Assembly (NCBI GenBank): GCA_030295235.1
Contig: AP026130.1
Coordinates: 1,116,001 to 1,180,000 of the forward strand
DNA length: 64,000 nucleotides
Direction of reading: 5' to 3'
Origin: Fistulifera solaris
Taxonomy: Eukaryota
In this document: positions 9,613 through 58,225 of the stretch, one piece after another
How positions within the stretch are numbered: position 1 is the first letter of the stretch
Layout of the letters: each line of letters opens with the position of its first letter
Position numbers and translations under genes: made by a program
Notes under the pieces: generated by a model
Databases searched by the model: none
What the model was told of the DNA's origin: nothing
Seen by the model: only the letters and a program-made list of their open reading frames with translations

Positions 9613-9794
9613 GTCGAAAATACCACACACCCACATTTTTTAGGAGACGTGAAAAACCACACTCCCATATTTTCTGGATACGTGAAAATACCACCCGCCC
9701 ACATTTTCTGGAGGCGTGAAAATACCACACCCCCACATTTTCTGGATACGTGGAAACCCACTCCCTCACATTTTCTGGAAACGTGAAAAAATCA
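9613..9794 (+). repeat. Minisatellite array A: ~5.5 copies of a 33-34 bp unit, approximately ACGTGAAAA(T/C)ACCACACNCCCACATTTTCTGGNN
   Basis: Units read directly, e.g. acgtgaaaataccacccgcccacattttctggag and gcgtgaaaataccacacccccacattttctggat. Lies between the divergent cyclophilin and helicase starts. Confidence 0.95.
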
Positions 9795-9921
9795 GATGCG
9801 GCCAGAGGCCAAGGCACAATGGGAAAAGAACCGTAAGGTTTACTGATATTCTTTTACTTTGCATGTTGAATTTGTTTACATCCTTTTTATAACCCCATGT
9901 AAAACACATTTTGCTGTCGTC

Positions 9922-12900
9922 ATGGCGCGCAAAAAGGCCAAGGCTAAAGGTTCTGACACGCGGGGATACAATCAACAAAACAACTCGCATCAACTTCCGC
10001 CCAAGCGAAACACACCGTCTCACGAAGCCAAATCATCGTATGATGTCTCGAAAACCCGAACGTGCACGCTCCGTCTTACTGAAGCCATGGAAACAGAATT
10101 GCGGGAATTTTTGGGTGAATTTCCTTTGCCACAAACGACGGCGCTCCCGTCGGATCGCTTTGGAAAACGGCTCACCAACATTTACGATCGACTGATCGAT
10201 CTAGGCTTTGCCTTCCAAGATATCCAACAAGCTGTGTCGCAGTTGCGCTATCACATCACTTTAGAGCTAGCGCTAGACTGGCTGTGCTGGCATGTTGATG
10301 TTTTACCTCCAAGATTCACGGACGAACGACTCGATGTGTCAACAAACTCGTCCTTGGTCTGGGTGGAGCCGATGACGAAAGCAGTAAGGACTTCAGAGAA
10401 CAAATCAACTGTGGAGAGAGATTTCGACACTACAGTCGAGTTCGCTAAGCCCGGCACTCTTTACCAGAAATTCCAAGGAGGAGATCAGTGTGATGAAAAA
10501 GATACTGCCATGTCGGATGCTCAAAAGCAGTGGCTTCTTTCGCAGTATCAATACGAGGAGGAGGAAGACGGAGAAAAAGAAGATGACCATGACTTAAGCA
10601 TGTCATTAGACGATTCTTCACCCGGCACTATACTACGCGAAGATGATGAATTGAACCGGGATAGATTGAGACTGAAGCAACTCAAGGTGGAATTGGAGCC
10701 CCTGGAATCGCAATTGAATGACGAGGCGTCGTGCTATATTATGAGTAAGCACGAGCTCAAGGCGATGCACAGTCGCGTGAAACCTCTCAAAGGTCAGATT
10801 AAAGTGCTAGAAGAAAAAATCGCTGGTCGAGAAAGGAAACTTGAGCTCCAAAGTCCCGTACATGAGCCTTTAGTAGACGGTGATAACGAAGAGGACAATT
10901 TTTGGATATTTTTAGCATGAGCAACGAAGATACCAATTCTAACGTTGATAAAGCAATGTCCTCACAAGTGAAAAAAGATGATGGAGACGAAATCCCGCTA
11001 ACTATCCCGAAAGATTCCGTGCCGAAATCGTGGACGGGGATGAAACCCAAAGCTCTTCTCGAAGATTACTGTCGACGACACAAGCTTCCTCAGCCATCAT
11101 TTCAGCGTACGACGAAAACCTCGTGTACACTAAGATTGAAGGGTTCGACGGGTGAAGCAGAAGTGGGAGTGATTTATCAGAATGGCCCAACGCTTGATGA
11201 TGCGCAGCATTTTGCTGCAACAAAAGCATTGTTTCAATTAGATTCGAAGGCAAACATTCAACACCTCCTACCTCCTTTTCATCGCCAAGTTTGGTCGGAA
11301 TGGAGGAGCACGGCAAAATTGATGGAAGATAGAATTAAAATAGATGAGGGGGCGAAACGTAAAAACGAAATTGATCAGCTTTTGAATCTGTTATCTAACG
11401 ATGACGAGGTGGGTCGCCAAAACAACAAAAGTAGAACACGGGCTAGAGGACATGATGGATATAAACGACCAAGCAGAATATCTATGGAAGGAAGTGAAAG
11501 AATTAAATTTGAGCAGTTCAGCTCGCTTATCTCAAGAGAGCATTCAGCTGAAGAACGAGTTCGAGACCATGGTAAAGTCTGAGCAATATCGAAGGCATTT
11601 AGAACTGAGAGAGAAACTTCCCGTTTACGGCTTTCGAGATTCAATCATAGAAGCTATCGATAATAATCCGGTCACGATCATATCCGCAGAGACAGGAGCA
11701 GGAAAAACTACTCAGGTTTGTTATTGAATTGTTTTCTGCCCAGCACGTGTTTAATTGAGTCTAACGTCTTTCGCAGGTACCACAGTTTCTTCTATCGACT
11801 GCTTTATTACAAGGAAAAGGAGGTCTCACATCAATAATATGCACACAGCCTCGAAGGGTTGCCGCTACATCTGTCGCTGAGCGTGTTGCGGAAGAGGTTG
11901 GAGAGCGGTCTGTTGGCGGTTTGGTCGGCTATCAGATTCGAATGGAAAGTTCCAAATCCAGTCGAACAAAGCTTCTCTTTTGTACAACAGGTGTCATCCT
12001 GCGTCGACTAATCGAAGACCCTATACTGAACGGTGTATCGCACGTGGTAGTTGATGAAGTTCACGAACGCCAGTGGCAAATCGATGTTCTCCTCATGTCA
12101 CTGAAAACACTCATGCAAGGGAGACGACCGGATTTGAAAGTAGTTTTGGTAAGTCATTCCAGGCTCCGTCCTTATTGATTATCAACTTAAAACTCACAAA
12201 AAGACACTAAGATGTCAGCCACACTTGATTCTGGTCTTTTCTCGTCCTACTTTTGGTCTGCCCCTGTGTTGAGCGTCCCAGGGCGGACCTTTCCAGTGAA
12301 GAATTACTTTCTGGAAGATTTGCTCGAAAAGACAGGGCACATCATCGAAGAAGATTCTCGATACGCACATAGAAGCTTTGTACGAATGGACAAGGTTGAT
12401 TTACAGATAACGGAACGCGGGGGACGAAAGAGACGCGATGTCGCCTACTTGCAATCGCAGACAGATGCAGAAGTCTCAAAAGAATTCATGGGTTACTCGA
12501 TGTCTACGCGAAGGTGAATACATTGAATATATTGCGCATTACTTTGTCGCTGTACTAACTCGTTTGTTTTCAAGATCGATGGACAGAGTTGATGAGACGA
12601 TCCTCAACTATGACCTGATTGAAGATGTCTTGGAGCTTCTCTTCTCTCATTCAAACACCTTCACAACAACGGACAATGTTGAAGTAAAGAATGGAGCTGT
12701 ACTAATTTTTCTTCCGGGCTTGCGAGAAATTCGAACATTGATGGATCGACTGTCAGGAAGAACGATCTTCCGCAATAACGATAAGTTAGAGGTGATACCG
12801 CTGCATTCATCATTGTCATCAAAAGATCAACGGCGAGCATTCAAGCCAGCAAACAAAGGGTGCCGAAAAATCATCATTTCAACGAATATTGCAGAAACTA

Positions 12901-14198
12901 GCGTTACAATTCCGGACGTAACATGTATCATTGATAGCGGGCTAGTACGAGAAATTCAGCGCGACCAACGGACTGGAACGCAAAAGCTCGTAACGACATG
13001 GTGTTCGAAGGCAAATACTAAGCAGAGGTGTGGACGAGCAGGCAGGGTACAACCAGGGATATCGTTAAGACTCTTTTCGTCAAAGACTGAAGCTCTGATG
13101 AAGAGCGTCACTGATCCAGAATTGAAGCGAATACCTTTGGAAGAAGTTTGTCTGACGATTTTAGCATCTGGCTTGTCAACTTCGTGCAAATCATTTCTTG
13201 CAAATGCTCCTGAACCTCCATTGGTATCCGCCATCGACGTTTCCTTAGAAGAGTTAAGATGCATTGGTGCTATATCGATTGAAAAACCTGACGGAATTAG
13301 CTCCGATGGTCCTCGCGAAGAGTTGACCGCGTTGGGTGAGCACCTTACAAAGATACCAATCGATGCAAGATTGGGGAAAATGCTTATATATGGCACTATG
13401 TTTCAGTGCCTCGATCCGGCCCTAACTCTAGCTGCGTGTCTCTCTGCATCCCAAACCCCTTTCGTTTTGTCAATTTTGGATGGCGAGGAGGTTAAGGCTG
13501 CGCATTCCTCATTTCTTGATACTTCATCGGACTTTGTTACTTTGCTCAATGTGTGGGAAGGATTTGTGTCTGCCGGGTCCGCAGCGCGCCGATTTTGCCG
13601 TGAAAAGTATTTAAATTACAATGCCTTTCTTGAAATTGCAGATGCACGTGACCAATTCTTATCTCATCTGTGCACCATTGGGTTCGTTGATCGAAAAGTG
13701 CTTCTTGACGGCCAAAGAAATTACAACTTTCAGAGCAAATCACCTGATGTGATTCATTTCGTCATATGTGCCGGACTTTATCCAAACGTGGCCAAGATGG
13801 AATCTGACTTGGGGCTTGTCCACAAGACGGAAAAGGTTTCTATACACAACAGTTCTGTTAACGCGAAATCACTGAAAGATCGTCCGTCAGACTGGGTAGC
13901 ATTCCATGAGAAACTAGGAACCGGGCGCCAGATCACAATTTCAACCACATGCTTTGTACATCCTTTCTCGTTGTTTCTACTTGGACCAATGATTCACATT
14001 GAACACATCTTACGAGAAGTCGAGATAGATAATTGGATCAAGCTTACTTTGTCTGGAAAAACGGCAGTGCTGCTAAAAGGACTCAAACATCGGCTGGAAC
14101 GATCGCTGAAAAATTACATCCAACAAGTGAACGATGATAGCAACGTTTTTGACGTAAAGGTGATTGATAAAATCATCTCTATTTTATGTCAAGTCTAG
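9922..14198 (+). CDS. DEAH-box RNA helicase of the DHX29/DHX57/DHX36 group; introns 11716-11776, 12149-12211, 12514-12574; frameshifts near 10900 and 11411
   Basis: Motifs [75 protein letters not shown] and an HA2 region. N-terminal UBA-like (LELALDWL) and dsRBD-like segments. Confidence 0.92.
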
Positions 14199-14257
14199 AA
14201 AATCATTGTCCCAAAAGATCGTAGCTTCAAAGTACTGTACAGTAAGATCATTTGAAT

Positions 14258-22183: not shown

Positions 22184-23282
22184 CTAAATAATACTCTTTC
22201 CCATCAACGATGTGATGATTTGAAGAGTCAATTCCGCTGTTTCATCCGCACCTGCGTCATTCGTAAGAGTCGGATTAAATTCCACGATATCCGCACTGGC
22301 TAGATTTCCAGTCTGTGCGATCGCCTCCGCAACAAAGTGGGCTTCACGGAATGTCAACCCACCGCGAACGGTTGTACCGGTCGCCGGAGCCAGCACCGGA
22401 TCTACAGCATCAATATCGTAGCTCAAGTGCAAGGGTCGATTTGGGTCTTTCTCTAGTAAGTGACCGATGGCCATCTCCATAACATTGCCGATGCCATACC
22501 GATCGATTTCATGCATAGTGAATGCCGAAATTCCCAAATCTCGAATGAGCTCTCGTTCAGCAGGGTCGACATCACGAAGACCAACATAAACGATGGAATC
22601 TGGGGGAAGACGGTTACGAAAGGTCTGATACAGCCAATCAAAACCCGGAACAGGTTCCGAGGGCGCGACCCCTTCCATGAGCAAGCCAACCGGCATTCCA
22701 TGCATATTTCCAGACTCTGACATGGCTGGAGTATTCAAATCAGCATGTGCGTCAACCCATATAACACCGGTGTGTGGTCGAGCACTCAGCACACCTGCTA
22801 AACTGCCGATTCCGATGGAATGATCACCTCCAAGAATCAAGGGAAACCTTCCTTTTTGATGGTATCTGAAACGAGCTTGGCTAGTTTCTCCGTTCCTTAC
22901 CAACAAGCCACGGGTTTCGTACGTTACCGATTCCAGCGGTCGGCTTGTGAGTTGTTGCATCATCGAAATCAAGATCCGGCAAATCTTCGACTCTCCAACC
23001 CAGAGCCGTCAACATGGATCGCAAACCACGTTGACGAAGAATCTCGGGTCCATGATCGGTCCCTACAAACGGCTGACCGTACGTCATGGGAGCTCCAATC
23101 ACAGTGCAAGTATGAGGATGAGCCACAGGACGATACAACTCTTCCCGTTTGACTGTAGGTAATATGCGGTTTCGAACAATACCGGGCCCTGTTGTCTTGA
23201 TGGCCTGGTCGGTGGAGAAGAAACGCAACGATCGGCAGCCGACGCGGTTTTGACGCCAACAAGAGATGGCCGATGAAATCAT
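22184..23282 (-). CDS. ARG: Arginase (urea cycle), likely mitochondrial; two frameshifts near 22898 and 22856
   Basis: Motifs GQPFVGTDHGP, LGGDHSIGIGS, IWVDAHADLNTP, SGNMHGMP, HLSYDIDAVDP, PATGTTVRGGLTFREAH, VEFNP. Arg-rich presequence (CRSLRFFST). Restoring two A residues gives VGKGTEKLAKLVSDTIKKGRFP. Confidence 0.95.
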
Positions 23283-23418
23283 CCTTTGCTTTACAAGTGA
23301 AAGGAAAGCACGGAACGCACTTTGGGAAAAGGTGAAAACTGATAAAGACACTTGGCCTTGATTGTGTAATAGGTGTTATGGGGATGGAGGATGGATGACG
23401 ATTGACGCAGGTTGTGAC

Positions 23419-23452
23419 ACCAGGTACCCAGATTTTCTGGGAATGTGAAATC
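23419..23452 (+). repeat. Single degenerate copy (D) of the 33-bp minisatellite family
   Basis: accaggtacccagattttctgggaatgtgaaatc resembles both ends of array B read on the minus strand (accaggtacgcaatcccagattttctgg...gaaaaatc). Confidence 0.5.
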
Positions 23453-25374: not shown

Positions 25375-25467
25375 TTCGCTAATATTTGCTCACAAGACAT
25401 GAGTTCACCACCAAAGACGATCATTAATCATTATCGACGGAAAAATCACAACAAATCCAAAGTCAAC

Positions 25468-42010: not shown

Positions 42011-42155
42011 AAAAATCATACTACGTCGATAATTACGCTTTCATTCAATCACCGAAACGCTTGAACGACGCTGTCTATTAGTTTGAGAATTATTCGTCGT
42101 CAGGCACAGAACTGAAGACTCCGACGAGATTCTAGATGTGATACTGTATCAGTAA

Positions 42156-42297: not shown

Positions 42298-42471
42298 GTG
42301 TTACCTCGTCGCTCGTCGCAGCATTGCAAATTTGATCTTTTTACATTCTCTTGTTGATGATGATTCATTCAAATGCATCTTGTTCATAACAATTAACTAT
42401 CCAACTCAATACAATAATATACAGGCAATTTGAATCATTATGCATGCACTTTGGTGTCAAGCGTAGCAAAA

Positions 42472-44337: not shown

Positions 44338-44465
44338 TTCAACAACTAAATATTCCTTTCAAGAATGCGCGAGGATGGAGCCGATGATGCCCCTGGTATC
44401 GTACACGATTACATTCTGTTCCCAATATTCTAAAACTAGTAAACGCGATGTTGACAAATTGCGAT

Positions 44466-45817
44466 TTATCTATTATTTATGTCAGTAGAAACTTCTCCGT
44501 TGTCGTCTTCTCGCTCATGGTGCGAGGATGCCTCAACATCCTCCTGCCTTTGTGGCGGCTCTTCGTCATCACTTTCGTGAATTCCTAATCGCTCCTGCTC
44601 TCTTTCCACAAACTTGGCCAACCTTGGAGATAGGGCAGTCCCTATGAGGAGCTGTGTCGGATGCCAAATGAGCAACGGCAGCGTATACAAGCCGACCGAG
44701 GGATTATCTCCGTATATCGAGTTGATCAATGGTATTCCAATCGCTACAGTTTTATGCGTGCATCCAAACAGTCCGAAGACACGCAATTTTGGCTGATTTG
44801 GAAAAGCAAATGAGAGAAGTAACCAGGCGCCCGTCATGAGTGTAACGAGCGAAATGAACTGGAAAGTAACTGAAAAGAGGAATAAGATGTCAATGCGGCG
44901 GAGCTTGAAACTAAGACAAGAAAGCCCAGGCACTTACTCATCAGAAAGATATCGCCGATCGAGCTTTGGGATTCTTTATCAAAGGTTTTGCAAAAGACAG
45001 TGTAGACAATAAACACGAGACCGAATTGTTGTAATTTCGCAAAGAACTTCTTGTGTTTTTTGTAAAACTCCACGACGGGTGGGGCCGTCTTTTGCAACAA
45101 CTGACCAAAGAGGACGGGCACAACAACTCTCAGCGTCAGTTCATAAAAGACTTTTACTAGATCAACATCACCCGACACTCCCAAGTATCCCAATATCAAT
45201 AGAGGAGAGAGAAACACTCCAATTAAATTGCCGAACGCCGAATTGAATACAGCAGAGGCCTCATCGCCGTTCGACGCCTTTGTTAAAATCTGACACCTGG
45301 ATAAGAAAGCAGCTCGTCAGCGACGCTAAAGTGATCAACGAAAACAAACTTGTACGTACATGTTGATTGTCATGGGTAAACTGGCACAAATAACCATCCC
45401 ATTCGCTAAATCCTCGGAGAGAATCGAAGCAGCCTCTAACCCTCGAGAAAGACCATACACCAAGGCAGAGCAGACGCCAAAGCTATACACCTGAACCAGC
45501 ACATTAAATCGAATTTGTTTGAATGCATTCGAAAATTCACTCGTCTTGAGACCCAATCCTGCCATGACAAAAATGAAAATGACGACGAGCCATGTCGCGG
45601 TAATATCGGGGGCCAAATACGTCGCCCCGATGGGCGGATACGCCCGCGCCAACAAAATAGCGATCAGAATGTGTATCAGAAATTCATTTTCCCAGTAAAA
45701 GGCCACAATGCGGTTCCACAATGTAGGTTTAGGTTCATTTTGTTGTTCGTCATGCGAGGCATTCTTATTCGAATCGGCGGAGACATCCAGCGAAGAGGGT
45801 GTCTCTTGAGGGCTCAT
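44466..45817 (-). CDS. SLC10A7: Sodium/bile acid cotransporter 7-like (SLC10A7/SBF-like); introns 45297-45359 and 44870-44937
   Basis: [82 protein letters not shown]. Confidence 0.9.
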
Positions 45818-46654
45818 TATTAGGAAGCGGTTGTTTGATGCACAAACGGAGTTGACGAGGACTTGTTCTTAATCGTCAATACTTCTCGCAATGTCGATGC
45901 TACTTCGCTAAAGAGCTGGGCTCTTGGTTTAATTATGCTTTCTTCGCAGAAACAAGAAGATAAATGAAACGATTGAAAACGAAAACGGTCATGTTTTTTG
46001 CAAAGCAAGAAGCTGACCACGGAATGAATTGGACGTCATTCCGGCAACGGTACTCCAGAGTACTATTTGTTGGACTGCTCAAAAGAATTTTCAGTCCCAC
46101 GTCAGACGTGAGGCCAATATTCAAGACTGCATTTCAAGTCACGAATAAATTCAGTTCATTCTGGACCACCTATCCATGCTCGCTTACTTTTGTATGTTAT
46201 ACTAGTTTATTCACCTTAACGCACAGAACAATTTGTCATTATCATTGGGAACTCCTTCATTCCATGTTTTGAATCAAAATGTTTTTGCGTTTTGTTCCCT
46301 TCCCTATCGAGTACAGTCCCAAAATAATAATGTTGTAGGCTCAACTTTACCACCACCGCATTTCAGTCATGAGTCATAATAAAGTGCATACATTTCGTTT
46401 TATAATTCCACGCATCGACTGTATTCGTCAAAACATCTTGCTGATCTGCATACCAGGTATTCCGTACAAAGTAAGGCTTACCTCTCACTCTCATGTCTCA
46501 TGTTAAATGTCAGTCCCGGGTTGTTGGGTCACGGGTGTGACGCTTTCTCCAGGGAAAATCCCGCAGGCCGCAGGCCGCAGGGGGCTCACGCCTTGAGCGG
46601 CTCTCTACGATGAATTCTCAGTCTTATTCAAATATCGGAATCCGAAATACATTT

Positions 46655-46739
46655 CTAGGTAGATGTACCCACCGGGAGATATACCAAGGTAGATATATCC
46701 CCCGGGGAGATATACCTAGGTAGATGTACCCCCTGGTAG
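46655..46739. repeat. Short tandem repeat: ~30-bp unit built from ~15-bp GG(T/G)AGAT(A/G)TA subunits
   Basis: ctaggtagatgtacccaccgggagatatac / caaggtagatatatcccccggggagatatac / ctaggtagatgtaccccctggtag. Confidence 0.8.
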
Positions 46740-47158
46740 CCGCCTCCCATTGTTATAAAAGTACAGCAGGAGCTAAATTATTGAGGAATCTTACTTTGAG
46801 TTCCCTCATATAACATTGCTACCTATCGCCTTTGAAAAATTTGATAAAGCAACTTCGGTAGCTCGTCTAGTATTCAGCTTTCAGAGCCAGTCTCGAACTG
46901 TCAGCTGACTATAAACCAAGATGTAGGTTATCCGAGACAGTACCACGACTGTAGTTTAGTCATGAAACGTCGTAATTGCGTCGACGATGCTATACGATGA
47001 TGATCGCGAGGCGACGAGGCAATCACAATACCGGTAAAAAATGATTTCAATTGCTTCTTGAGTGACGATTAAGTTGAACCCGCTATTATCAACCGTATTG
47101 AATCAATCCACTGCATACTGCGTTGCTGTTTGCTTTACAGGCATCCTTGGGCTACACG

Positions 47159-48486
47159 ATGATAAAAAGCTTTCTTCGAACGTCGGCTTTTGCGCTGATG
47201 GTGTTACTCATTCGTCCATCGGCACATGCATTTCTTTCTCCCATCCGCATTCATCTGAAGCAAATTTCTACGATTTCACGGTCTAAACAGTCACAGGTAC
47301 TTTTTTCCGCCAGCGAATGGCAGGAAAAGGCTTCTTCTCCGATCTTGTTGTCTTCCGTCAATCCATCAATTGCCACGCCATCGCTCACCAGAAAGACGTT
47401 TACCGATCGACGAGGATCTCAAATGAAGACACTACTTCGTGTCGGCGCTCCGAGTCTCATTATTGGCGCTGTCGCCTGTCTGACCTTTCCCGCACTTTCC
47501 ATGATGATTGCTTCGCTCATACACGACGCGGGTGCCTTCACTGTCCTTTCACAAGATTCCAGTCAGTTTGTGCAAAACTTTCTCAATGTAGCTGGTTTGC
47601 TTTTTAGCATTCTAGTCGGTCAAACGTGTAAGTCTTCATTGTGAAGTCAATTGATCTCAGAAAAAGAATCTCAACTTTTGTCTCGCTTCTAGACTACTTC
47701 CTATACACACAGCAGGAAAGCATCTTCTACGCTTTGTTTGAAGAAGTGACGGAAGCGAAATCGTTGCTCGAACAAGTAGCACTGGTATGTCAAGGACGGT
47801 CCATGTACAATCGCTGTTTAGAAGCGATTTCGCGCTATGTTCAACACGACTTGAAAAAGATTCAATCGGATCCAGCGGTATTGTTGTCCGCGCGACCGGT
47901 GGACGACCCGCTTGAAGCCATCATGTACATGACCTCGGTAGGAGTTCCCGGTTCCGTCTATGATACCGTCAAGTCGCTCCGCGAGGCACGTGCGCGGCGT
48001 TTGGGTGCCCTGCAACGAAAACTCCCTCCCATTCATATGCTCTTGCTGTGGGTATTGGCGGGTGTTCTTTTGGTGAGTTTCCCACTGCTGGGAGCTGGGA
48101 CGCAAACGATCGGGGGATTCAAGCTATTGACGGTGGAAGGTACCCTGTTTGGTGTAATGACATCTGGGATTATTTTGACATTACGAATCATTGGAGAGCT
48201 TTGGAGACCCGCCGGTGGAGCGTACAATGTGGATTCGGTCTTATCCGTCATGGTCAGTGGATTAGAGCAAGAACTCAAGGCACGCCGGGATGGACAGAAG
48301 CTGTTCAAATCAAATCGTTTAGCACCATCAGGACCGAACGAAGACTGGAGACAAGCTAGTACTAGTAAGAAAACGGACGACACGCCGGGTGAAGATTCGA
48401 GCAAACCTTCCGTGCAGCAACAAGGGGCAGACGTTGCGGTGGCGTTCAAACGAGTGAAAGGATGGATCAAACGCTGGACGCGCTAA
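47159..48486 (+). CDS. Probable plastid-targeted membrane protein (DUF4239/bestrophin-like topology); intron 47628-47692
   Basis: Signal peptide plus AHAF-LSP motif. GLLFSILVGQT/YY...EVTEAKSLLEQ, LREARARRL, and ELWRPAGGAYNV after paired TM helices. Confidence 0.65.
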
Positions 48487-48624
48487 TTGTAAATTGCTAA
48501 ATTAATTGCTGTAAAGCTGATGCATTGCGAGATCGACAGTTCTTTTCACGATAACCTACCGACATGAGTACTTCGTAAACACTGGGAACAAAACAAAACT
48601 AGCAATGGTTAACATTCGATTCTT

Positions 48625-50183
48625 TTAGTTTCGCATTATCTTCCGTACCAATTCGTCTGGTAAGCGGTTGTCTTGCATGAATGATCTCATGTAAAGAATA
48701 GACTCGGTTCCCCAATCAATGGCTGGCCGCCCTTGTATAGACTTGCCCTGTAATCTGGCAGGTGGCAAATGTTGCTGTAGTTGTGATTGCACCGACGACG
48801 ATGTGGGCGCTTGCAAAACCATTTCGGCAACTTGCATCAGAGAATCTAAACTGTTCATCTTCATGAAAGGACAAGTCGCGCAACCACCAGATGTACTGCA
48901 ACCCTCGCCTCCTGAGACACCAGGGACGAGCGGCATGTCAATATCACCAGTACCAGTCATAGCCTCGGACGCTACCGGGAAAATGATTTCTGCTTCAATG
49001 CTTGGATTAGGGGCATCGGCCAAGATGTTCTGTACGGATTGTACGATGGATGTGACCATGCCGGCTTCTGTTCCCAATATAAATTTTAATCGTTTCGGAT
49101 CAGGCTTCATCGAAGCGTCCTTCACCTTGCGCGAAACAAATTTCAGTATATCAGAAGTAGAACCAACCACACCTTCATCAGACAGTGACTTTTCCATAGC
49201 CATCTGGAACATTTCTCCAGGGACTTCGAGGTGCGCTGTGATAAAGCAGTCATCGTAATACTTCGATCGAACAGTGTCCACAACTGCATCGCCAAACATG
49301 TGATGAACAATGCAGTTACCGGAGGGGAATACTGCGATAGAGTCTCGTAAGCCCCGTAGCGTTTCGCGATTGTGATTTGGATGTAAATCTTTGGCAATCT
49401 TCTGATCGTTCCACGCCGGATCTTGTAGCAGTGCCGTCAGCAGAATAACCAGATTCTCTCCCATGTAAGTGTCCGGTCCGTACAATATTTTGATATCCGG
49501 AACTTGCGCGTATGCTTGCAAGATGGTAGCGAGAACATTGGATGATGTGCACGTAATAGTAGGTACCAGACTACTGCTGATCGCCTTTGTTTCCAAGCTT
49601 GTGTTAATGTACACAACATGCAGTGAATTGGCGGCTGCCGACTCTTTTCCAACCAAGCTCGATAAACGGCACGTTCCGCTGATTCAGCAAGCGAACATCC
49701 GATTTTGTTAGCAGTAGCTCGATAGACAGGCACCTGTTCAAATCCGTTCTTATGCAATATCGACTGCACCGATTCTGACATGAAATCAACGCCGAGACAA
49801 GCAATTTGTTCTACCCTTCCACTTTGCATCATTTCTACCGCCATATCTCCCATTTTTAGAGAATCAGCAATCCCAACAGCTGGATGACTCCTTTGAACGG
49901 CTTGTAACACTCCTTGTAATTCCACATCCATGTAATAATGAGCGACGACTCCCAATTTGGCCTTTTCTAAAAGTTCCGCCAATTCTTTGACGGCCACTGG
50001 ATCCGGATCAAGATAGAGAGCCTGTGCCTCTGCAAAGGATCCCACCGGCTGTATCGAGCGACCAATTATAAGCGACGGAAACTGATCGACGGACTGCTCA
50101 AAGGCTGTCGTCACGGAAGCAAAACATCGAAAAGGGAAAGTAGTCAGCGTTCTGGATAGCTTAGAAAACAGTGTTCGATGCAT
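48625..50183 (-). CDS. nadA: Quinolinate synthase (NadA, plant/algal type); frameshift near 49648
   Basis: VVAHYYMDVELQGVL, IADSLKMGD, LGVDFMSESV, IGCSLAESA, HVVYINTSLETKA, TCTSSNV, GPDTYMGEN, CIVHHMF, AHLEVPGEMF, GTEAGM, CATCPFMKMNSL. Mitochondrial-like presequence. Confidence 0.93.
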
Positions 50184-50863
50184 TTTAAAAGGGGGAGACT
50201 TCAAGCACTCTCGTTGATGTTACAAGCCAGCGTCTCTAGTTGCTAAATAGGTATAGGCTGTGGCTTTTTTCTTCGGTAAAGGTAAAAGCTGTTGCTTTTG
50301 TTTCTGGATCCGATGCGATGATGATGAAGCAACGGCATTCGTGCGGCGAACATGGTGAGTGGTGTGAAAGTTGTTTGGCAAGCCCTTCGTCCGCTTCTGT
50401 TGCTTGCCAGACGGCCAGACAGAAACAGATGTCACATGTTGTGGGTCATCCGGTCATTTCAATAAACATCCTATTACTTCACTCTGATTCTTGAAGTGCA
50501 GAATGCGGCATTTCTTTTGTCAAGAGTCTTTAGATAGTGTTCCTGTAGGGCCATAATTTGAGTAATGACTATCCTACTACTGCGTTATGTACGAGAAGCT
50601 GACACTGGAAAAGAAAGAAGGAAGAGGACTGGCTTTTCGTTTTCTGGAGGATCTGTATAGCCCCTTTCTGTAAAGGGTAAGACTGCTCGCCTTAACGAGT
50701 TTCGCGGAAACGGCCCATTCCGGCACGCAGTCTCGGCACTGGCACACGGATGAATTTACATAATAGGCGAGAGGTCGCTTATTGGGTGTTGCTCTTTGTG
50801 CTTGCTTCCATTTTGTTCAAAGCACGACCATCCGTGCCAACACAAAAGATATTGATAGAGATC

Positions 50864-51670
50864 ATGACAGTAGCAATCTGCATTCAACAGGAGCCGGAAC
50901 TGGAGACGATCAAGAGTTCTTCCTCGGTAGGCGGAAGCGAGTGTAGCAAAAGCCTAAGCCTTGGAGGGAGAAAATCGGTCCGGTTTTCTTTGAAACGAAA
51001 CGAAATATTCATTCTAAGTGATGACTATGAGGGAGTAGAAATCAGCGAAATTTGGTTTGGTGGCGACGAGTTCATCCGAATCAAAGCGAAATCGCGGGAA
51101 GAATCGAGGCAATGGAGACGTCTGGGTTATAGCGTCCTCCTCAAAGAGTGCTTTCACCGAAGAGATCCGGATGTGCAGCATCAGCTGAATGCCTTTTGTC
51201 AGCTAGAAGATGAACTATGCCGTCGAGGACTCGAGCGGCATTTATCAAAACAGCATGCCGAAGAGCGATCTGACTGCAAAGATATTTCGAGACAGGCTGT
51301 GCTTTCTACTCAAAAGCGAATGAGAAATAAAGATGCTAACAGCGATGAAACAATCAGAATGGTGTCAGAAGCCTATGAACAGCAAACACGAAGCTCCAAG
51401 ATGTTCGCACATCGTATGGGACTTGCTGATGAATATACAGTCAAGAAAGGGTGCAATTCGAGCGCGGCAAGCAAATATCTCGAAGAGGAAGAATACGAAG
51501 GCGGGGGAAGGCGAAGAATGCAGCGACGTCTGAGTAATTACTCGGTGGTGTCGACAAATTCAATGGATTCACGCCGAAGGTGGCTTGCGACAACAGAGCG
51601 GCAAAAACGCCGACCCACACCCGCTTCACCGGCTTCCGTATCCGATGATTTCTACGCAGCGATTGCGTAG
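50864..51670 (+). CDS. Hypothetical protein of a common diatom family (KSVRF...IWF...RGLE...AVL...D motif)
   Basis: KSVRFS, EIWFGGDEFIRIK, CRRGLERH, AVLSTQ, FAHRMGLADE. KSVRF is an RVxF-like PP1-docking motif (inference). Confidence 0.75.
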   Translation: MTVAICIQQEPELETIKSSSSVGGSECSKSLSLGGRKSVRFSLKRNEIFILSDDYEGVEISEIWFGGDEFIRIKAKSREESRQWRRLGYSVLLKECFHRRDPDVQHQLNAFCQLEDELCRRGLERHLSKQHAEERSDCKDISRQAVLSTQKRMRNKDANSDETIRMVSEAYEQQTRSSKMFAHRMGLADEYTVKKGCNSSAASKYLEEEEYEGGGRRRMQRRLSNYSVVSTNSMDSRRRWLATTERQKRRPTPASPASVSDDFYAAIA

Positions 51671-51939
51671 TTTGCATGACTTCTTATATTTCATATTAAG
51701 ACTAATGGTGCTTTTTCATAGAGGGGACAATCAAAGGATAATGATAATGATCATTTGCGCTAGACTATTACTATATCCACGCTCATATGATTATAATGGA
51801 GGGTAGAAAGTAACGACGATCAAATACTGGCTTTAATAACTTACATAATTCTACACGAGATCATGAACGAGTTATCTCCACGTTCAGCCACTATGTTCTT
51901 GGCCGGGGCTACTATTTACAGTGAAGGAGTTCGACAACT

Positions 51940-53160
51940 CTACCGTCTTTTGCGCCGATTTCGAATAGCACAAAATGCGATTACTATCCCAAGGATACCA
52001 AATGCAAGGAGTACCCACGCCCATGGCTCCATTTTCTTCTCTTCCGATATACCCTTCACTTCTACGACAGGGGGGTTTGTTGCTGTCAAATTGGTTTCAG
52101 GGCCTTCATCATCTCCAAAGTCTACGACGTATGACACGTCCACGACGTCGGGGTGAACCGCGTTGAGCAGTCCTTTTTCCATCATCTCTTTTGCCGAGAC
52201 GAATACAAAAGGTTCAGTCCAGTTCAAAGGTAGCGTGTCATCTTGCGACAATATCGTCAAGGCACCAGATACTACAAAACAACGTCTCGCGTTTCCCAGC
52301 AATGACGTTCTGCATCTCACTTGTAAAGGAAGGAAAATGTGAGCCGCAAAGACCTCCATACGTTTCACCACATTGTACAGGATGCTTATCTCACCTCCGT
52401 CTACTCCCGGAAGGACTGTATCCTTTGGTTCAGATAGGAGACCTGATACAGTCGCCCCATCGATTGGTTGATCCACAGAAATGCGTGTCTCTGAAACGGT
52501 GATACTTGTGTCCGAGCAGAGTGAATCGGCAAAGACGTTTGTTATCAAATGCCGAGCGAGAGCTTTTTCCAGAAAAAACAAAACCTCTTCTTCCATTCTC
52601 ACGACGGTTTGATTCAATGTGGTTTGGACCTGATAAAGAAAGGAAATCTGATGTGTCTGCGTCCCTGTTCCGAAGTCACCGTCGGTATTGGTTTCGCACG
52701 ATGGATTTGACGTCGTAGTGGGTGGACTCGTTGCTTCATTTTCCGGAGCAGGATCTTTTGTTGTCGAGGTTTCGTTACCAATTGACGGCGTAGTGGGTGC
52801 GTCAGTTCCTTCACCCTCCGCACTTGGCTCATTAGTTGGAGGGGTTTCGTTACCAGTTGGCGGCGTTGTGGGCGCAGTAGTAGCTTCCTCTTCCGGAGCA
52901 GGTTCACTGGTTGCAGCGGTTTCGTTACCAAGCACATCTTGCTCACCTGGCGTGGAGCAATATCGAGAATCTAAACACAAGGCGTCCAAATTGAGTTGAC
53001 GTGTGGGGTTCTGACGAAGCGATCTTCGCTCATATTTTGTGCCGTCCATGACAGTTCCTGGAGCGATTGCTTGCGTTTCAATAAACTCTTTCTTGACGAC
53101 TGCGTTGCTCTGATTGGGGGAAAGGTGAGTATGCCGAGTCAGTAAGGGACGGGCAAGCAT
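51940..53160 (-). CDS. Single-pass membrane/cell-surface protein with Thr/Pro-rich repeats; in-frame intron 52320-52394
   Basis: C-terminal TM segment WAWVLLAFGILGIVIAFCAI followed by RNRRKRR. Three ~25-aa GNET repeats. GTGAGA...CAAG intron. Confidence 0.7.
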   Translation of the reverse strand: MLARPLLTRHTHLSPNQSNAVVKKEFIETQAIAPGTVMDGTKYERRSLRQNPTRQLNLDALCLDSRYCSTPGEQDVLGNETAATSEPAPEEEATTAPTTPPTGNETPPTNEPSAEGEGTDAPTTPSIGNETSTTKDPAPENEATSPPTTTSNPSCETNTDGDFGTGTQTHQISFLYQVQTTLNQTVVRMEEEVLFFLEKALARHLITNVFADSLCSDTSITVSETRISVDQPIDGATVSGLLSEPKDTVLPGVDGGEISILYNVVKRMEVFAAHIFLPLQVRCRTSLLGNARRCFVVSGALTILSQDDTLPLNWTEPFVFVSAKEMMEKGLLNAVHPDVVDVSYVVDFGDDEGPETNLTATNPPVVEVKGISEEKKMEPWAWVLLAFGILGIVIAFCAIRNRRKRR

Positions 53161-53660
53161 TCATTATTGGTTATTGGTTGTTTGTCGTCAGTTATTGTCA
53201 CGTTTTGCCGTGAAAGTCCAAGTGCCAATAGAGGCGAGCAGAAAGAGAAAAGAGGTGCGAAAAAATGGAACCCGTGTTGTGCCACAAGCCACAAGCCACA
53301 AGTGTGCCATAAGCCATAAGCCATAAGTATCCGAGAAAGGCCCTTTACGATACGTCCATTCTCCAGTCCGTCATAAATCGTCAACTACTATGAATCACGA
53401 AGTATACACTCGATCAAAATTCAAAATGACCCGATAGTCTGTCCCACTGTCCGACTCACGCTATGCACCGTTGCCAGTTGCCATGACCCATGACCCATGA
53501 CCATGACGCGTTTTACAAACTACCAGTATCTTTGACGCTAATGAGGCAAAGGGCTCATTCTTTCGACAATAAAAGTATCAATAAAAACAGTTCGAGTTCT
53601 GCGTAACGTCTTATCCCCTCTTGATATCAAAGTAACTAAGATATTTTCTTTTACTGATTA

Positions 53661-54782
53661 ATGAAGGCAATGTCCGTATTCTTCGCGACCGCGATCGTGG
53701 CCGCCTCAAAGGCATTTTCTTTTCGTTCTTTGAGAACATCATCCACTCGGTTGTTTTCGTCCGTCAGCAAGTCCAGCGCTCCTCCAAGATATAATGAAAA
53801 GGATGTTCAATTGATGAAAAACATCTTATACCGCGTCCGAGCAGTGAATCAAATGCCGGAAGAAGTGCGATCTAGCTTGATAGAATTTCATATTGACGGC
53901 GTTTGTGTCGGAAAGGTCGACCCATCTATTGCGGATCTAGTTTGTTCGGCGGACACTGTTTTTACCATAAATCAAGACAACATGTTGACGCTGACAGCAG
54001 ATGCAGGAACAACATTTGACTCTCGTACACGAGCGGTGGCTAGGGTCATGGAGAAATTACGAGACGATGGAATTGTGCAAGGATGGCGCAATGAGGATTA
54101 TCCGGTGAGCACGGGTTTTTACGATGAACCCTTTTTCGTAATTGAGCGAGCTGCCGCTGCCTTTCTTGGGATACTGGAATATGTAGGTAGACGCTGAATG
54201 GGCTAGTGTTTGTGAATTTCAAGGCGTTCCCACTCATCATTAGTCTTGCTACAGGGAGTGCATATTAATGGCTTAGTCAGCAGCGATGACGGATCACAAC
54301 CTCGTATGTGGATAGGTCGACGATCACCTACCAAATCGAAGTACCCTGGCATGCTAGATCACATTGTTGCCGGTGGGCAACCCGCAGGGCTTTCGTTGAT
54401 GGAAAATGTGGTCAAAGAGTGCACGGAGGAAGCGGGCATTCCGGAGCACCTGACTTTGGCCGGGGTTCGACCAGCCGGAGCTATCAGCTACGAGACCTAT
54501 TCGACAAAGCATAAAGCAGTCTCTCGTGTCGTACTTTTCAATTATGATCTCTATCTTCCAGCTGATTTTGTTCCAAAGCCGGTCGATGGTGAAGTGGACG
54601 AGTTCTTTCTCTGGACTATAGATCAAGTTCTTGAATCGATGGATCCCGACTACCCAGATCCAATCAAGCCGAATTGCTACAGCGTGATCATTGATTATTT
54701 GCTACGTGAAGGTCATATATCTCCAGAAGTCCCTGGCTATCTCGATGTGTTGAAAGAACTTAGGAGCGGAGATTGTAGATAG
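53661..54782 (+). CDS. Nudix hydrolase (plant NUDT20/24, yeast YJR142W-like), probably plastid-targeted; intron 54183-54254
   Basis: GWRNEDYPV, IERAAAAFLGILEY/GVHING, MWIGRRSPTKSKYPGMLDHIVAGG, KECTEEAGI, YDLYLP, DGEVDEF, KPNC. SKAF signal motif. Confidence 0.9.
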
Positions 54783-55072
54783 GGGATAGCGAGCTAGAGG
54801 GGAATCTTAGAGATTAGAGACTCTAAAAGGACTTCTTGGGTTCGCATGCTCGCAAGGCTAGATCTAGAACCACAAGAATTTGAAATAGTAAACAAAGAAT
54901 TTACTGTTATTAATGGTCAGAAAGGAAGATTTGACTTTATCCACCCCATTTATTAAAATATCATTTTACCATACAACAGTAAATGACAACAACCAGATGA
55001 AAAAAGAGACTTGATGAGATAATAGAACGCCGACTACTTCACAGAGATGTAGTGGCCAGTTAGAGCAGAGAT

Positions 55073-55553
55073 TTATTCTCCCTTTTCATCCGCTGGCTCG
55101 GCATCATCACCTTCGGCTTGATCACTGGTCCACAGCGTCAAGTTATCTCGAAGAAGCTGCATGATCAGTGTTGAATCCTTGTATGACTCCTCGTTGAGGG
55201 TATCGAGCTCAGCGATGGCATCGTCGAACGCTTGCTTGGCAATCTGGCAAGCCTTGTCGGGGGAATTCAGAATCTCGTAGTAGAATACGGAGAAGTTGAG
55301 GGCAAGACCCAACCGAATGGGGTGTGTTGGCGGGAGATCGGAGCTCGCGATGCCACTGGCGGCTTGGTAGGCATCAAGAGCCGCGCTGGCACTCTCCTTT
55401 CGGGTGTCACCGACCTGGAACTCGGAAAGGTAGCGGTGATAGTCTCCCTTCATCTTGTAGTAGAAAACCTTGGCCTCCTCCGAAGTAGAGTTGGGGATCA
55501 AAGAGTCTTCGATGATGCTGAGAATGTCGTTGCAGATCTCAACAAGCTCGGTT

Positions 55554-55584
<31 letters not shown>

Positions 55585-55807
55585 TCATCTTGTCCGGGTC
55601 TCCTTTTTGCTCAATGCTGGTGACAACACGCCACGAGGCACGACGAGAGCCAATCACGTTCTTGTAGGCAACCGAAAGCAAGTTGCGCTCTTCGACGGTG
55701 AGTTCTTGCGGTTGACGAGCAACGTCCTTCATGTCGGAGACCATCTCGTCGAAACGCTCGGCTTGCTCAGCGAGCTTGGCCTTGTAAACTAGAGCTTCAC
55801 GATCCAT
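55073..55807 (-). CDS. 14-3-3 protein
   Basis: [85 protein letters not shown]. Strongly C/G-biased third codon positions. Confidence 0.99.
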
Positions 55808-56691
55808 TGTTATCCTATTTTATTATTGCCGAAGTAAGTTGATTCGAACGCAAGTTTTTTATGATCCAAAATGGCTCTGCACGGCGATGGCACTGCGAGC
55901 AGACCGCACACCGCACACGGCTGCCTCACAGCGAATTACTACTTCCGTTGCGACAGTGTTTCCGAATTCCTACACAGTTATTCATAGTTACGTGTCCGAT
56001 GACTGCGGCAATTGTAAGGTGACCCTCTTCAAAACACTATAGTCATTAGAGTCGGCTACTTTCTGAAGGATACACGTCGCACACCGCTCCGCGCGCCTCC
56101 GCAATCGGAAGTCGTCGAATTTTGGAAGGCGGAAGACGAACCTTCGACAAAAAAAAGAGAAAGAGAAGGATCTGGAACAAACAATCGCATCGACAGCCAG
56201 ACGCCAATCGTCGGGTCGTCGACCGTCAATGCGAATTACGTCCACACGCCATACACTTCCTTCCAAACTGCGAGGTCGAAATGCATCCAAGACTGGTCAT
56301 TGTTCCTGTATAGCTCAATGTGTTCTATTTATTCTTGATCTCGCTTGCTGGTTGGCGTGAAAAGTCCGTCCGCTCCGAGTTTCGAGTTGGAGTGGAAAGA
56401 GAGGGGCAAAGATCGGACGGTTCAAGTAATCGCGGAAGGTGTTCTTGCTTCTTGTTGCACTGTACCCTGTCCGACTAATAAACGGGATAGAAGAGCAAGT
56501 GATCCTGTTGGCACTTAACATCCTTTCACGGAATCCAGCTGGAAAATGGGTGCAAGATGCCAAATCTCCACCCACCTTACGCGCGCCTTTATTTTCTACA
56601 ATCTCCCGAAGCGAAAAAACATACACAACTTAAAACGTTTCTTTATCAAAGCTATCTATCTTGCGTAATAATTCATCGAACAAACAAAGGA

Positions 56692-57099
56692 ATGTCATCA
56701 ACAATAATGAATTTCACCGCCGATACTTTCACAGTCGAACAATTGTCATCGACAAGGCGATCAAAAATTCTCGACGACCACAGCTCCGCAACAAGTGTCA
56801 CAGAAATGGAAAACTCCACCAGCCAAAGTGAAGAATTGGGATCATCGTTAGATCTGGGGACTGACGCTCGACATTGTAGGGGGTTGGCGGATTCAAGTGA
56901 ATGGGATGACTCGTTTGCCGGGGAAGATTCATTCGCCGTACACGAAGGGACTGGACCCTATCGACCGGTGGCATTTCGCGAGCTGGTGACCGTTGGTGAA
57001 CACGGAGAAGAGGAAGACGAGGAAGAAGAAGACGACGACGAGAAAAGCAACGGCGACAACAAGTCGAGTCCATTACATTCAGAAAGAAAAACGAATTGA
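56692..57099 (+). CDS. Small acidic hypothetical protein
   Basis: ATG after an A-rich leader; DSSEWDDSFAGEDSFA and a poly-E/D tract. 3' end uncertain. Confidence 0.5.
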   Translation: MSSTIMNFTADTFTVEQLSSTRRSKILDDHSSATSVTEMENSTSQSEELGSSLDLGTDARHCRGLADSSEWDDSFAGEDSFAVHEGTGPYRPVAFRELVTVGEHGEEEDEEEEDDDEKSNGDNKSSPLHSERKTN

Positions 57100-57138
57100 A
57101 TTACTTACAGCTAGCGAACGGCTTTACCAGCCGATACC

Positions 57139-57828
57139 TTACAATACTTGCGTCAGAACCGACTCTGGAACAATTGCACCTTCTTTAATAACTTTTGCAT
57201 ACCATCCGCGAAGCCCGGGCTTTGAATCTAATAAACTTATAAATTCTTGACAGTCTTTGATACGCTCTTTGGGTGTCTTCGAATCATTATTGATGTACGG
57301 TAATTTGCATAGATTAGCGCAAGGAATAACGGGTTCGGTAATCTCTAAAACAACCTCGTTTTCACTGCATTTGAAACGATATTGCTTCCCAGGCTCAAAG
57401 AAAGAATAACAGACTTTATCCAACAACATGTTTTCTCCTAGATCACCGTCCGCCACCGGATACTCATATGATCTCAAAAGTTCCATTGTATCGGTGGTAA
57501 GCAAAGAAACCGCCCGATCGGGTGTTCCCTTCAAGGCAATGCTTCTGTAATGGTTGTAGTCCCCTCGAACGCCTGCCTTGCTAACCCAGATTTCCTCTTT
57601 CTGTTCGTCCTTTCGTGTCGTGTAAAACCGACTCGATGGCCTGGAACTCTCGTCATCGTATTTCCGTGCAGCTAGTCGACAAACGTAGCCAATTGGCAAT
57701 GAATTATCACCGTTAAGTATGGATTTGGACGCCAATAATTTGCGATCGTCCTTTACCCCCATTGAAGCGCAATCGGTCCACTCTCCGACGAACATTACGA
57801 GAGGAACGAAGACTCGCAGGGAAACCAT
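57139..57828 (-). CDS. MOSC-domain protein (YiiM-like)
   Basis: GVRGDYN, DRAVSLL, GDLGENMLL, VLEITEPVIPCANL, GLRGWYAKVIKEGAI. Confidence 0.85.
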   Translation of the reverse strand: MVSLRVFVPLVMFVGEWTDCASMGVKDDRKLLASKSILNGDNSLPIGYVCRLAARKYDDESSRPSSRFYTTRKDEQKEEIWVSKAGVRGDYNHYRSIALKGTPDRAVSLLTTDTMELLRSYEYPVADGDLGENMLLDKVCYSFFEPGKQYRFKCSENEVVLEITEPVIPCANLCKLPYINNDSKTPKERIKDCQEFISLLDSKPGLRGWYAKVIKEGAIVPESVLTQVL

Positions 57829-57939
57829 AATAATAGAAAAAAATCTTCAGGTAGTCATGTAGCTTCCATTTCAAGCATGCCCTCGAACATAAACAGGTGA
57901 TCGATAGAGACGCTCCGAATTTGTGAGAGAGTTCAGTGG

Positions 57940-58225
57940 ACGTGAAAACACCACACCCCCCGCTTTTTCTGGGTACGTGAAAACATTACACCCCCACATT
58001 TTCTGGGTACGTCTAACACCACGCGCCCACATTTTCTGGCTACGTGAAAACATTACACCCCCACATTTTCTGGGTACGTCTAACACCACACACCCACATT
58101 TTCTGGGTACGTCTAACACCACTCACCCACATTTTCTGGGTACGTGTATAAACACCGCACTCCAACATTTTCTGGGTACGTGGAAAACACACGCGCACAT
58201 CATACATTTTGTTTGCACGTGCAAA
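57940..58225 (+). repeat. Minisatellite array C: ~8 copies of the 33-36 bp unit, with ACGTGAAAAC and ACGTCTAAC variants
   Basis: acgtgaaaacattacacccccacattttctgggt occurs twice exactly; acgtctaacaccacNCNcccacattttctgg three times. Lies between the divergent MOSC and SET genes. Confidence 0.95.

Follow-up and report, generated by a model that had tools for sequence, protein, structure and literature searches.

Three tandem arrays and one solo copy of a single 33-bp unit (range 31–36 bp) are present in the 64-kb window, i.e., the whole stretch of DNA that was analysed, and all of them lie in intergenic spacers. The sequence belongs to Fistulifera solaris, an allodiploid, transformable and industrially used oleaginous diatom, and a rough estimate based on contig depth gives several hundred units in its genome. 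Our best explanation, which is proposed tentatively and with somewhat less than even confidence, is that the four loci are members of a genome-wide family of dispersed minisatellites sharing one core.

The three arrays were called by Tandem Repeats Finder at 9616–9789 (array A; period 34, 5.1 copies, 83% matches), 42156–42283 (array C; period 32, 4.0 copies, 80%) and 57947–58181 (array D; period 33, 6.9 copies, 81%), with higher-order periods of 67 and 100 also present in array D. The pattern CACATTTTCTGGNNACGT, allowing up to two mismatches, gave 15 matches in the window, every one of them at the four loci, when 0.06 were expected by chance and the maximum across 100 shuffles was 2. Successive unit starts among the pattern matches are separated by 32–36 bp. 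In addition, a profile made from 16 units of the window recovered all its source units (E ≤ 3.5e-7) and picked up the solo copy, hereafter B, at 23425–23450 (E 4.9e-5). The next profile match (16549–16534, E 0.18) is inside the ORF of a PPR protein and was attributed to chance. The three approaches together confirmed the arrays and the single copy of one unit at the places reported in an earlier note on this DNA. The array extents given there also held, and were refined at two edges: array D reaches ~58245 through two degenerate units, and the reverse array C, described as covering 42156–42297, has one further degenerate unit that takes it down to ~42125.

Array A (9613–9794, plus strand) consists of ~5 units of 33–34 bp, the first of which is degenerate, and its end is ACGTGAAAAAATC. 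It is placed in a 400-bp divergent spacer between a cyclophilin gene (8678–9522, minus strand), which comprises a Pro_isomerase ORF (8678–9217) and an ATG-initiated upstream ORF (9214–9522) and starts 91 bp from the array, and a gene for a DHX29-like DEAH helicase (9922–14198, plus strand), whose ATG (9922) is separated from the opposite edge of the array by 128 bp. Solo copy B (23419–23452, plus strand) presents, in this order, ACCAGGTAC, the dyad box CCCAGA-TTT-TCTGGG and GAATGTGAAATC, and also appears in the repeat pair I20 (24 nt, 88%). It lies 137 bp from the ATG of an arginase-family gene (22184–23282, minus strand), this ATG (23282) being in frame in ORF 22881–23351. Array C (42125–42297, minus strand) comprises a 5′-terminal unit with ACCAGGTAC (42288–42296) and three good units, after which come degenerate 3′ units. 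In its head-to-tail spacer of 461 bp, the stop codon of a kinase-like gene precedes it by ~146 bp, and 175 bp separate it from the ATG of an EME1/MUS81_C-domain gene (42472–44337, plus strand). Finally, array D (57940–58245, plus strand) contains seven good units with a 67-bp higher-order pattern, followed by the two degenerate units. Its 616-bp divergent spacer separates a MOSC-domain gene (57139–57828, minus strand; ATG at 57828, 112 bp from the array) from a SET-domain gene (58371–58978, plus strand), whose likely first ATG, at 58371, is ~125–180 bp away according to the array end chosen. Pfam searches confirmed the cyclophilin, arginase, EME1/MUS81_C and MOSC assignments, and the four ATGs that had been noted near the loci (9522, 23282, 42472 and 57828) each open an ORF on the indicated strand.

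The unit is composed of two conserved boxes, CCCACATTTTCTGG (box 1) and ACGTGAAAA (box 2), with a free 2-nt linker between them, and of a hypervariable C/A-rich spacer. Box 1 agrees with the consensus in 201 of 210 cells (96%) and box 2 in 126 of 135 (93%), whereas linker and spacer are nearly free, with eight different linker dinucleotides found in 14 units. Box 1 has dyad symmetry, which is perfect (6+6) in solo copy B. Units 2 and 4 of array D are identical at 33 of 34 positions, and the sole difference among units 3, 5 and 6 of the same array is in the spacer, CAC[GCG/ACA/TCA]CC. Each array carries its own signature: six of the seven D units have the linker GT, GAAAA is followed by T in array A, and the spacers of array C are shorter. 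Homogenisation is nonetheless weak, as identity within arrays (0.81) barely exceeds that between arrays (0.77; label-permutation p 0.0026). Degenerate units border arrays C and D. The array-specific signatures, the 67-bp repeat of array D, the higher identity within than between arrays and the degenerate flanking units all point to growth of the arrays in place.

Contigs of two sequencing runs, X1 and X2, pile up 5–10-fold on arrays C and D. Summed contig depth over the two array bins was 356 and 437 in X1 and 253 and 189 in X2, in comparison with ~20–50 in 27 of the 28 other bins; the one further raised bin (46088–46671) had depths of 91 and 60. Local depth was 2045 at 42224 and ~840–905 at 58012–58112, and that of single-copy contigs was 14–20. 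Translated into unit equivalents, which are rough and refer to copies at least 80% alike, these depths correspond to ~340 + 420 units (X1) and 370 + 260 units (X2). At the array edges, the loose contig ends agreed with their consensus at merely 0.51–0.63, indicating many different continuations. The depth pile-up and the many differing loose ends thus bear out the proposal of the earlier note that the loci represent one dispersed family, which reaches well beyond the window. As regards variation in unit number between strains, which would be expected of a minisatellite, contigs break inside the arrays, and joints going back 33, 34, 41, 57 and further may belong to other loci. In run X6 (organism B), coverage was limited to the 14-3-3 gene and some other short stretches and did not extend to the arrays. 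The 64-kb window holds 16 units where the depth estimate predicts ~1, but a regional enrichment was considered and rejected: copies below 80% likeness do not enter that estimate, and choosing the window for its several arrays made it a biased sample.

The ends of the loci gave further information about how the family may have spread. Solo copy B is best fitted by the 5′-terminal unit of array C, with an alignment score of 45 versus 24–35 for the other units and at most 25 in 2000 shuffles. Both of these loci open with ACCAGGTAC, and array A, solo copy B and array C close with GTGAAA(AA)ATC or GCGAAAAATC, three of the four loci terminating in one unit phase. Part of the argument from shared termini holds, namely the kinship between the solo copy and the 5′-terminal unit of C and this end phase. 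ACCAGGTAC is missing from the 5′ end of array A and from that of array D. The match between the solo copy and the 5′-terminal unit of array C, together with the common end phase, favours a model in which a short seed of defined extent was dispersed and then expanded in situ.

The anatomy of a Helitron/Helentron element, with which the earlier note compared the arrays, or of a MITE was not found: the loci have no 5′-TC or 3′-CTRR ends and no terminal inverted repeats, the 5′ end with ACCAGGTAC giving no match to the reverse complement of the 3′ end. Instead, the locus ends read ACCAGGTAC... and ...GAAA(AA)ATC, with flanks GAC...TTT and ACT...ACA. None of 12 pairwise comparisons of 200-bp flanks was significant (z from −0.65 to 1.85), and inverted-end flank scores (11–15) were within the range of the flank-pair null (null means 16.3–16.8). 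Directly outside the ends of B and C there are imperfect direct matches, ACACT/ACATT (4/5) and TGTGAC/TTTGAT (4/6), which depend on where the ends are placed. Two palindromes are found towards the 3′ ends of arrays: TGATAC-N-GTATCA (13 bp, 42139–42151), just past the 3′ end of array C and within a degenerate unit, and, where array D degenerates at its 3′ end, the perfect TTTGCAC/GTGCAAA (14 bp, 58212–58225), which includes CACGTG. The two are mutually unrelated and differ in their distance, and at A and B such palindromes are weak or missing. No transposase or Rep/helicase domain was detected in the 48 window ORFs scanned. Nothing in the analysis shows this family to be a classical jumping element.

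The distance to an ATG is 91–175 bp at all four loci, and the earlier note described the family as promoter-proximal. Of the 17,358 intergenic bases on a rough ORF map, 12,966 (~75%) belong to spacers that border a gene start, 13 of them divergent and 7 tandem. Given this spacer composition, four of four loci would stand beside a gene start with a chance of ~0.3, as calculated from the rough map, and the placement of so few loci is not distinguishable from the null. A consistent orientation toward the genes, also claimed, is likewise indistinguishable from the null in the window: three of the four loci are in divergent spacers and arrays A and D are nearly centred (91 vs 128 bp and 112 vs ~125–180 bp to the two ATGs), so at most two orientations are informative. 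The suggested phasing of the ACGT cores at three helical turns proved to be approximate only, the mean period of ~33.4 bp being equivalent to 3.2 turns, and successive sites therefore rotate around the helix. Nothing in the analysis shows that the arrays control the adjacent genes.

According to the minisatellite explanation, a seed of ~35–45 bp, made up of ACCAGGTAC, the dyad box CCCAsA-TTT-TCTGG, a 2-nt linker and ACGTGAAAA(A)TC, would have spread by copying to numerous intergenic positions. Replication slippage or unequal exchange would then have expanded it locally at most of these, in a 33–34-bp register and, in array D (57940), in a 67-bp register, the outcome being arrays of 4–9 units with decaying edges. 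In a compact genome with alternating gene strands, most of the non-coding DNA that is tolerated would be promoter-bearing spacer and, as part of the same tentative reading, this would be the main reason why the arrays are near gene starts. The boxes may persist because a protein recognises them, either a host factor or the copying machinery. As in minisatellites, the units are arranged head to tail (periods 32–34 bp, 4.0–6.9 copies) and the same core recurs at many loci, as evidenced by the four loci in the window and the 5–10-fold depth pile-up. Several points count against this explanation: conservation confined to the boxes is not what neutral decay would leave, yet it is predicted by a regulatory role; homogenisation is weak; arrays A and D lack the ACCAGGTAC end; and the analysis yielded no mechanism that would copy a 35–45-bp seed.

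Such a regulatory role, which we regard as unlikely although deserving more weight than the other alternatives, would make the arrays copy-number-variable cis-regulatory cassettes with the unit as a composite binding site. The dyad box CCCAsA-TTT-TCTGG would accommodate a dimeric factor and, 2 nt on, an ACGTG half G-box would be bound by a bZIP/bHLH factor, as ACGT cores are; the arrays, as homotypic clusters of such sites located shortly before transcript starts, would place many promoters under one regulator. This agrees with the restriction of conservation to the boxes (201/210 and 126/135 cells), with spacers that differ even in otherwise identical neighbours such as units 3, 5 and 6 of array D, with the dyad symmetry of box 1 and with the position of the four loci 91–175 bp from an ATG. 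In addition, every unit has an ATG on the strand of the adjoining genes, so the arrays would be unlikely to lie within 5′ UTRs and would instead be upstream of the transcript start. However, placement and orientation match the null in the window, a period of ~33.4 bp does not hold the sites on one helix face, and the four adjoining genes have no obvious common function. Furthermore, the accessible part of a homoeolog-bias study of F. solaris contains nothing similar among its promoter motifs, and ACGTG, CACGT, CCAGAA and TTCTGG have 0 occurrences in one supplementary file of the same study. Matches of the boxes to the consensus sites of HSF, STAT, KLF and the evening element were also considered and dropped, since the fit failed in spacing or half-sites. 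A more elaborate proposal, which we consider improbable, is that the unit is a diatom-specific composite operator (dyad box plus ACGTG half-site) that mobile or repair-driven copying would have spread through hundreds of promoters and slippage would have amplified, the number of units setting promoter strength or timing across a regulon.

The possibility that the family is a non-autonomous transposable element, MITE-like or derived from a Helitron/Helentron (DINE/HINE), with an expandable internal array and a preference for open promoter chromatin, is in our opinion slightly less probable than the regulatory cassette. A dispersed multi-copy family would be expected from it, and it could explain the specific 5′ end that solo copy B and array C share (ACCAGGTAC plus a G-variant box), the 3′ phase ..GAAA(AA)ATC common to A, B and C, the short palindromes just beyond the 3′ ends of C and D, and the imperfect 5–6-nt direct matches outside B and C, which may be weak target-site duplications. 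Nevertheless, these duplications are imperfect and depend on end placement, the palindromes of C and D are non-homologous and inside degenerate units, and the ACCAGGTAC end is missing at A and D. The absence of terminal inverted repeats, of 5′-TC or 3′-CTRR ends, of significant similarity in the 12 flank comparisons and of transposase, Rep or helicase domains among the 48 window ORFs also argues against an element of this kind, and 35–45 bp is below the size of typical MITEs, which are larger. Very improbable, finally, is a role of the arrays as transcribed RNA, whether in gene leaders on the unit-sense side or in a non-coding RNA with repeated CCCA-loop-UGGG hairpins. Compared with its shuffles, the CCAGAAAATGTGGG strand folds better (z −3.07; equalled by 2 of 200), and the arrays contain no ATG on the unit-sense strand, a feature consistent with a 5′ leader of the DHX29-like and SET genes. 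But the stems are merely 3–5 bp, the opposite strand is unremarkable (z −1.00), and no Rfam match was obtained in the window at gathering thresholds.

Searches for relatives were extended to other collections. A metagenome scan with an 18-nt pattern (16 specified bases) found at least 117 loci with one match each, none of them tandem among the matches listed, and these matches were attributed to chance. The unit profile, applied to the metagenome loci listed, found none with more than one match, and two loci among the matches listed (L041 and L102), with two core-like matches 62 nt apart, proved to be unrelated sequence. A two-unit pattern matched nothing in either viral contigs or the contigs of prokaryote genomes. 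To see whether such arrays are miscalled as genes, the open frame that spans array D was used as a protein query; of 189 candidates, none had E ≤ 0.001. Within the window, a weak 40-nt similarity between 23746–23785 and 46334–46373 failed on alignment.

If the boxes are protein-binding sites, the loci would offer a natural series of 1, 4, 5, 7 or more units for tests of promoter tuning and could be one reason why homoeologs differ in expression. Should the composite-operator proposal be true, homoeolog expression bias would be due in part to differences between subgenomes. A neutral family would still supply strain markers and would warn that short-read assemblies break at these promoters. To our knowledge, publications on the dispersed tandem repeats of diatoms or on the architecture of their promoters are few, and a literature search that included strings of the unit yielded no description of it, with unrelated primer matches only. 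Non-coding repeated motifs have been reported from the same genome, namely centromere/ARS consensus motifs and, in the part of the report available, “highly repeated elements” between LPAAT genes (bioRxiv 10.1101/2021.11.10.468027). The three centromere motifs printed there, of ~40–50 nt each, bear no resemblance to the 33-bp unit.

Among known systems, Helitron/Helentron-associated elements (DINE-1, HINE and the bivalve pearl/CvA-type elements) are likewise dispersed and non-coding and have a tandem core of variable number, but they possess a subterminal hairpin, in place of which unrelated short palindromes follow arrays C and D here, as well as defined termini and conserved modules to the left and right, which were not found at the present loci. 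Promoter tandem repeats such as the 27-bp repeats of Toxoplasma SAG1 and the unstable repeats of yeast are short units 100–300 bp from a gene start, and the number of units in repeats of this type could tune output. The function of those repeats is established by reporter assays, whereas the present unit is known from its sequence and recurs at hundreds of places. Unlike the hypervariable minisatellites of Jeffreys type, which include the 33-bp repeat of a myoglobin intron, the unit described here has two boxes, dyad symmetry and an ACGT core, and its loci occupy very short spacers of a compact protist genome. Features common to both are units of tens of bp, from few to many per array, at dispersed loci that have one core in common, with the rest of the unit variable and the edges of the arrays degenerate.

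Tandem Repeats Finder recovered array A, in the spacer between the cyclophilin and DHX29-like genes, at 9616-9789 (period 34, 5.1 copies), array C, upstream of the EME1 gene, at 42156-42283 (period 32, 4.0 copies), and array D, in the spacer between the MOSC and SET genes, at 57947-58181 (period 33, 6.9 copies, with higher-order periods of 67 and 100). All 15 matches to CACATTTTCTGGNNACGT with at most 2 mismatches in the window fell at the four loci, 0.06 being expected, and a profile of 16 units searched over the 64 kb found the solo copy B, near the arginase gene, at 23425-23450 (E 4.9e-5). The four-locus family claimed in the earlier note is therefore real. The profile detected no other credible unit in the 64 kb, the next-best match (E 0.18) lying inside a PPR ORF. 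The edges of arrays C and D fade out through degenerate units.

On the unit strand, four parts were distinguished: a free linker of 2 nt (8 different dinucleotides among 14 units), box 2 (ACGTGAAAA, with the consensus in 126 of 135 cells), a C/A-rich spacer of 6-10 nt and box 1 (CCCACATTTTCTGG, consensus in 201 of 210 cells). Where one unit meets the next, the two boxes together make up a single conserved stretch about 25 bp long. The spacer differs even among otherwise identical neighbours, three D units being distinct only at CAC[GCG/ACA/TCA]CC. Box 1 is dyad-symmetric, without a mismatch in the solo copy (CCCAGA-TTT-TCTGGG) and with a single mismatch in most units. The strand of the arrays reading CCAGAAAATGTGGG gave a somewhat better fold than shuffles (z -3.07), the opposite strand no better one (z -1.00); Rfam gave no match in the window.

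Units were only slightly more alike within arrays than between them (identity 0.81 vs. 0.77, permutation p 0.0026), although every array has its own signature; the 67-bp higher-order duplication in array D is recent. The solo copy B best matched the 5'-terminal unit of array C, scoring 45, whereas none of 2000 shuffles exceeded 25 and eight other array segments scored 24-35, and both have ACCAGGTAC and a G-variant of box 1. Moreover, A, B and C end in one unit phase, directly after box 2. Of the shared ends proposed previously, a common 5' end in B and C and a common 3' phase in all three of A, B and C held up. They speak for the copying of a defined short sequence from site to site; that the arrays arose independently is less likely.

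Logan contigs from four runs, including X1 (the likely source run), X2 (a wetland metagenome) and X7 (a sediment metagenome), were aligned to 42000-59500 at a likeness of at least 80%. Summed contig depth in the bins of arrays C and D was 356 and 437 in X1 and 253 and 189 in X2, and about 20-50 in 27 of the 28 other bins, the exception being 46088-46671 (91 and 60). At 42224 the local depth rose to 2045, and at 58012-58112 to about 840-905, against 14-20 in single-copy contigs. Many contigs linked C-like and D-like units in different orders (going back 33, 34, 41, 57, 58, 85 or 105, or joining opposite strands), and loose contig ends at the array edges agreed at only 0.51-0.63. The depth excess, the mixed orders and these heterogeneous ends therefore indicate that the family is dispersed, multi-copy and genome-wide. 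The copy-number part of the genome-wide check suggested in the earlier note, run through contig depth, gave several hundred unit equivalents: roughly 750 (X1) and 630 (X2), a rough estimate taking single-copy depth as about 16.5 and 11, respectively, and covering only copies at least 80% alike. One 191-nt contig from X7 also aligned to array D, from which it differed at 25 positions and by 5 gaps.

A second repeated stretch occupies 46088-46733, in the 1.3-kb divergent spacer of the SBF-like and bestrophin-like genes, with a depth about twice the background (91 in X1, 60 in X2), loose ends of 8 contigs at 46341 and a tandem repeat at 46655-46733 (31 bp x 2.6). Between the bestrophin-like and NadA genes, one X1 contig skipped 76 nt at 48510-48587 (ends GT..GG), X2 being without the skip, which could be a subgenome indel or an intron-less form. 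The quinolinate synthase (NadA) gene (48625-50204, minus strand) is spread across two overlapping ORFs, likely owing to an intron or frame change. At 42676-43493, in the EME1 gene, X2 shows two versions (50 and 118 differences per about 820 nt), unlike elsewhere in the window, where its kb-long contigs match at 100%; they would be alleles, a homoeolog or related environmental strains.

The window is eukaryotic nuclear DNA (46% G+C) with densely spaced genes, most of them poor in introns, that alternate between the strands. Three of its proteins are present in public collections by exact look-up. The LRR protein at 60735-62297 has FisN_3Lh112 of Fistulifera solaris as cluster mate at 90% identity or more, which makes this allodiploid diatom the most probable source of the window, possibly through the subgenome partnering the one with that gene. 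A rough ORF-based map gave 13 divergent (8305 bp), 7 head-to-tail (4661 bp) and 14 convergent (4392 bp) spacers; on it, strand alternation is near-perfect across the whole window and the shortest convergent spacers measure 39-59 bp. The ORF at 25399-25875 has a basic stretch (…RKRLAAKLRQRRCRERKK…) like a bZIP basic region and no Pfam match; a 406-codon ORF (51940-53160, minus), without Pfam hit, contains three in-frame 75-bp repeats at 52707-52931, 72-77% alike.

The account that we consider best, quite possible if short of probable, is a dispersed minisatellite family sharing a core, in which a short seed would have spread by copying into many spacers and then grown in situ into arrays. A non-autonomous transposon, which the copying argued from the shared ends would also suit, is unlikely. 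The 200-bp flanks outside the units are unrelated (12 comparisons, z from -0.65 to 1.85) and the ends of the loci are neither inverted repeats nor Helitron-like, so that the Helentron/DINE-type anatomy proposed earlier was not upheld. The palindromes located beyond array C (42139-42151) and array D (58212-58225) are short, mutually unrelated and within degenerate units, and none of the 48 window ORFs scanned has a transposase or Rep/helicase domain. At B and C, candidate target duplications match imperfectly (4/5 and 4/6) and depend on the chosen end positions.

That the arrays function as a regulatory cassette is also unlikely, if less so; the contrast between conserved boxes and a variable spacer is the strongest argument that a protein recognises the unit. 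An ATG does lie 91-175 bp away on the named strand at all four loci, as had been noted. However, divergent and head-to-tail spacers hold about 75% of the intergenic bases on the rough map, and therefore the placement of all four loci near gene starts (about 0.3 by chance) is unremarkable and the promoter-proximal claim does not exceed the null. Divergent spacers house A, B and D, with A and D nearly centred (91 vs. 128 bp and 112 vs. about 125-180 bp to the two ATGs). Array C lies in a head-to-tail spacer, a stop codon preceding it by 146 bp and the EME1 ATG following it by 175 bp; the orientation of C, and perhaps that of B, is informative. On the strand that encodes cyclophilin, arginase, EME1 and MOSC, every unit introduces an ATG, which suggests that the arrays are upstream of these transcripts, outside their leaders.

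The preprint on the F. solaris chromosome-scale assembly (10.1101/2021.11.10.468027) prints three centromere/ARS motifs, all unrelated to the ~33-bp unit, and mentions "highly repeated elements" between LPAAT genes, unexplained at that point and shown in a supplementary figure. The homoeolog-bias paper (PMC5935921) gives a list of promoter motifs, and ACGTG, CACGT, CCAGAA and TTCTGG had 0 occurrences in one of its supplementary files. A literature string search for the unit sequence returned unrelated primers only, and literature searches on diatom minisatellites, MITEs and Helitrons gave nothing relevant at listing level. Systems with which this family may be compared are Jeffreys-type minisatellites, DINE/HINE elements and the Toxoplasma SAG1 repeats.
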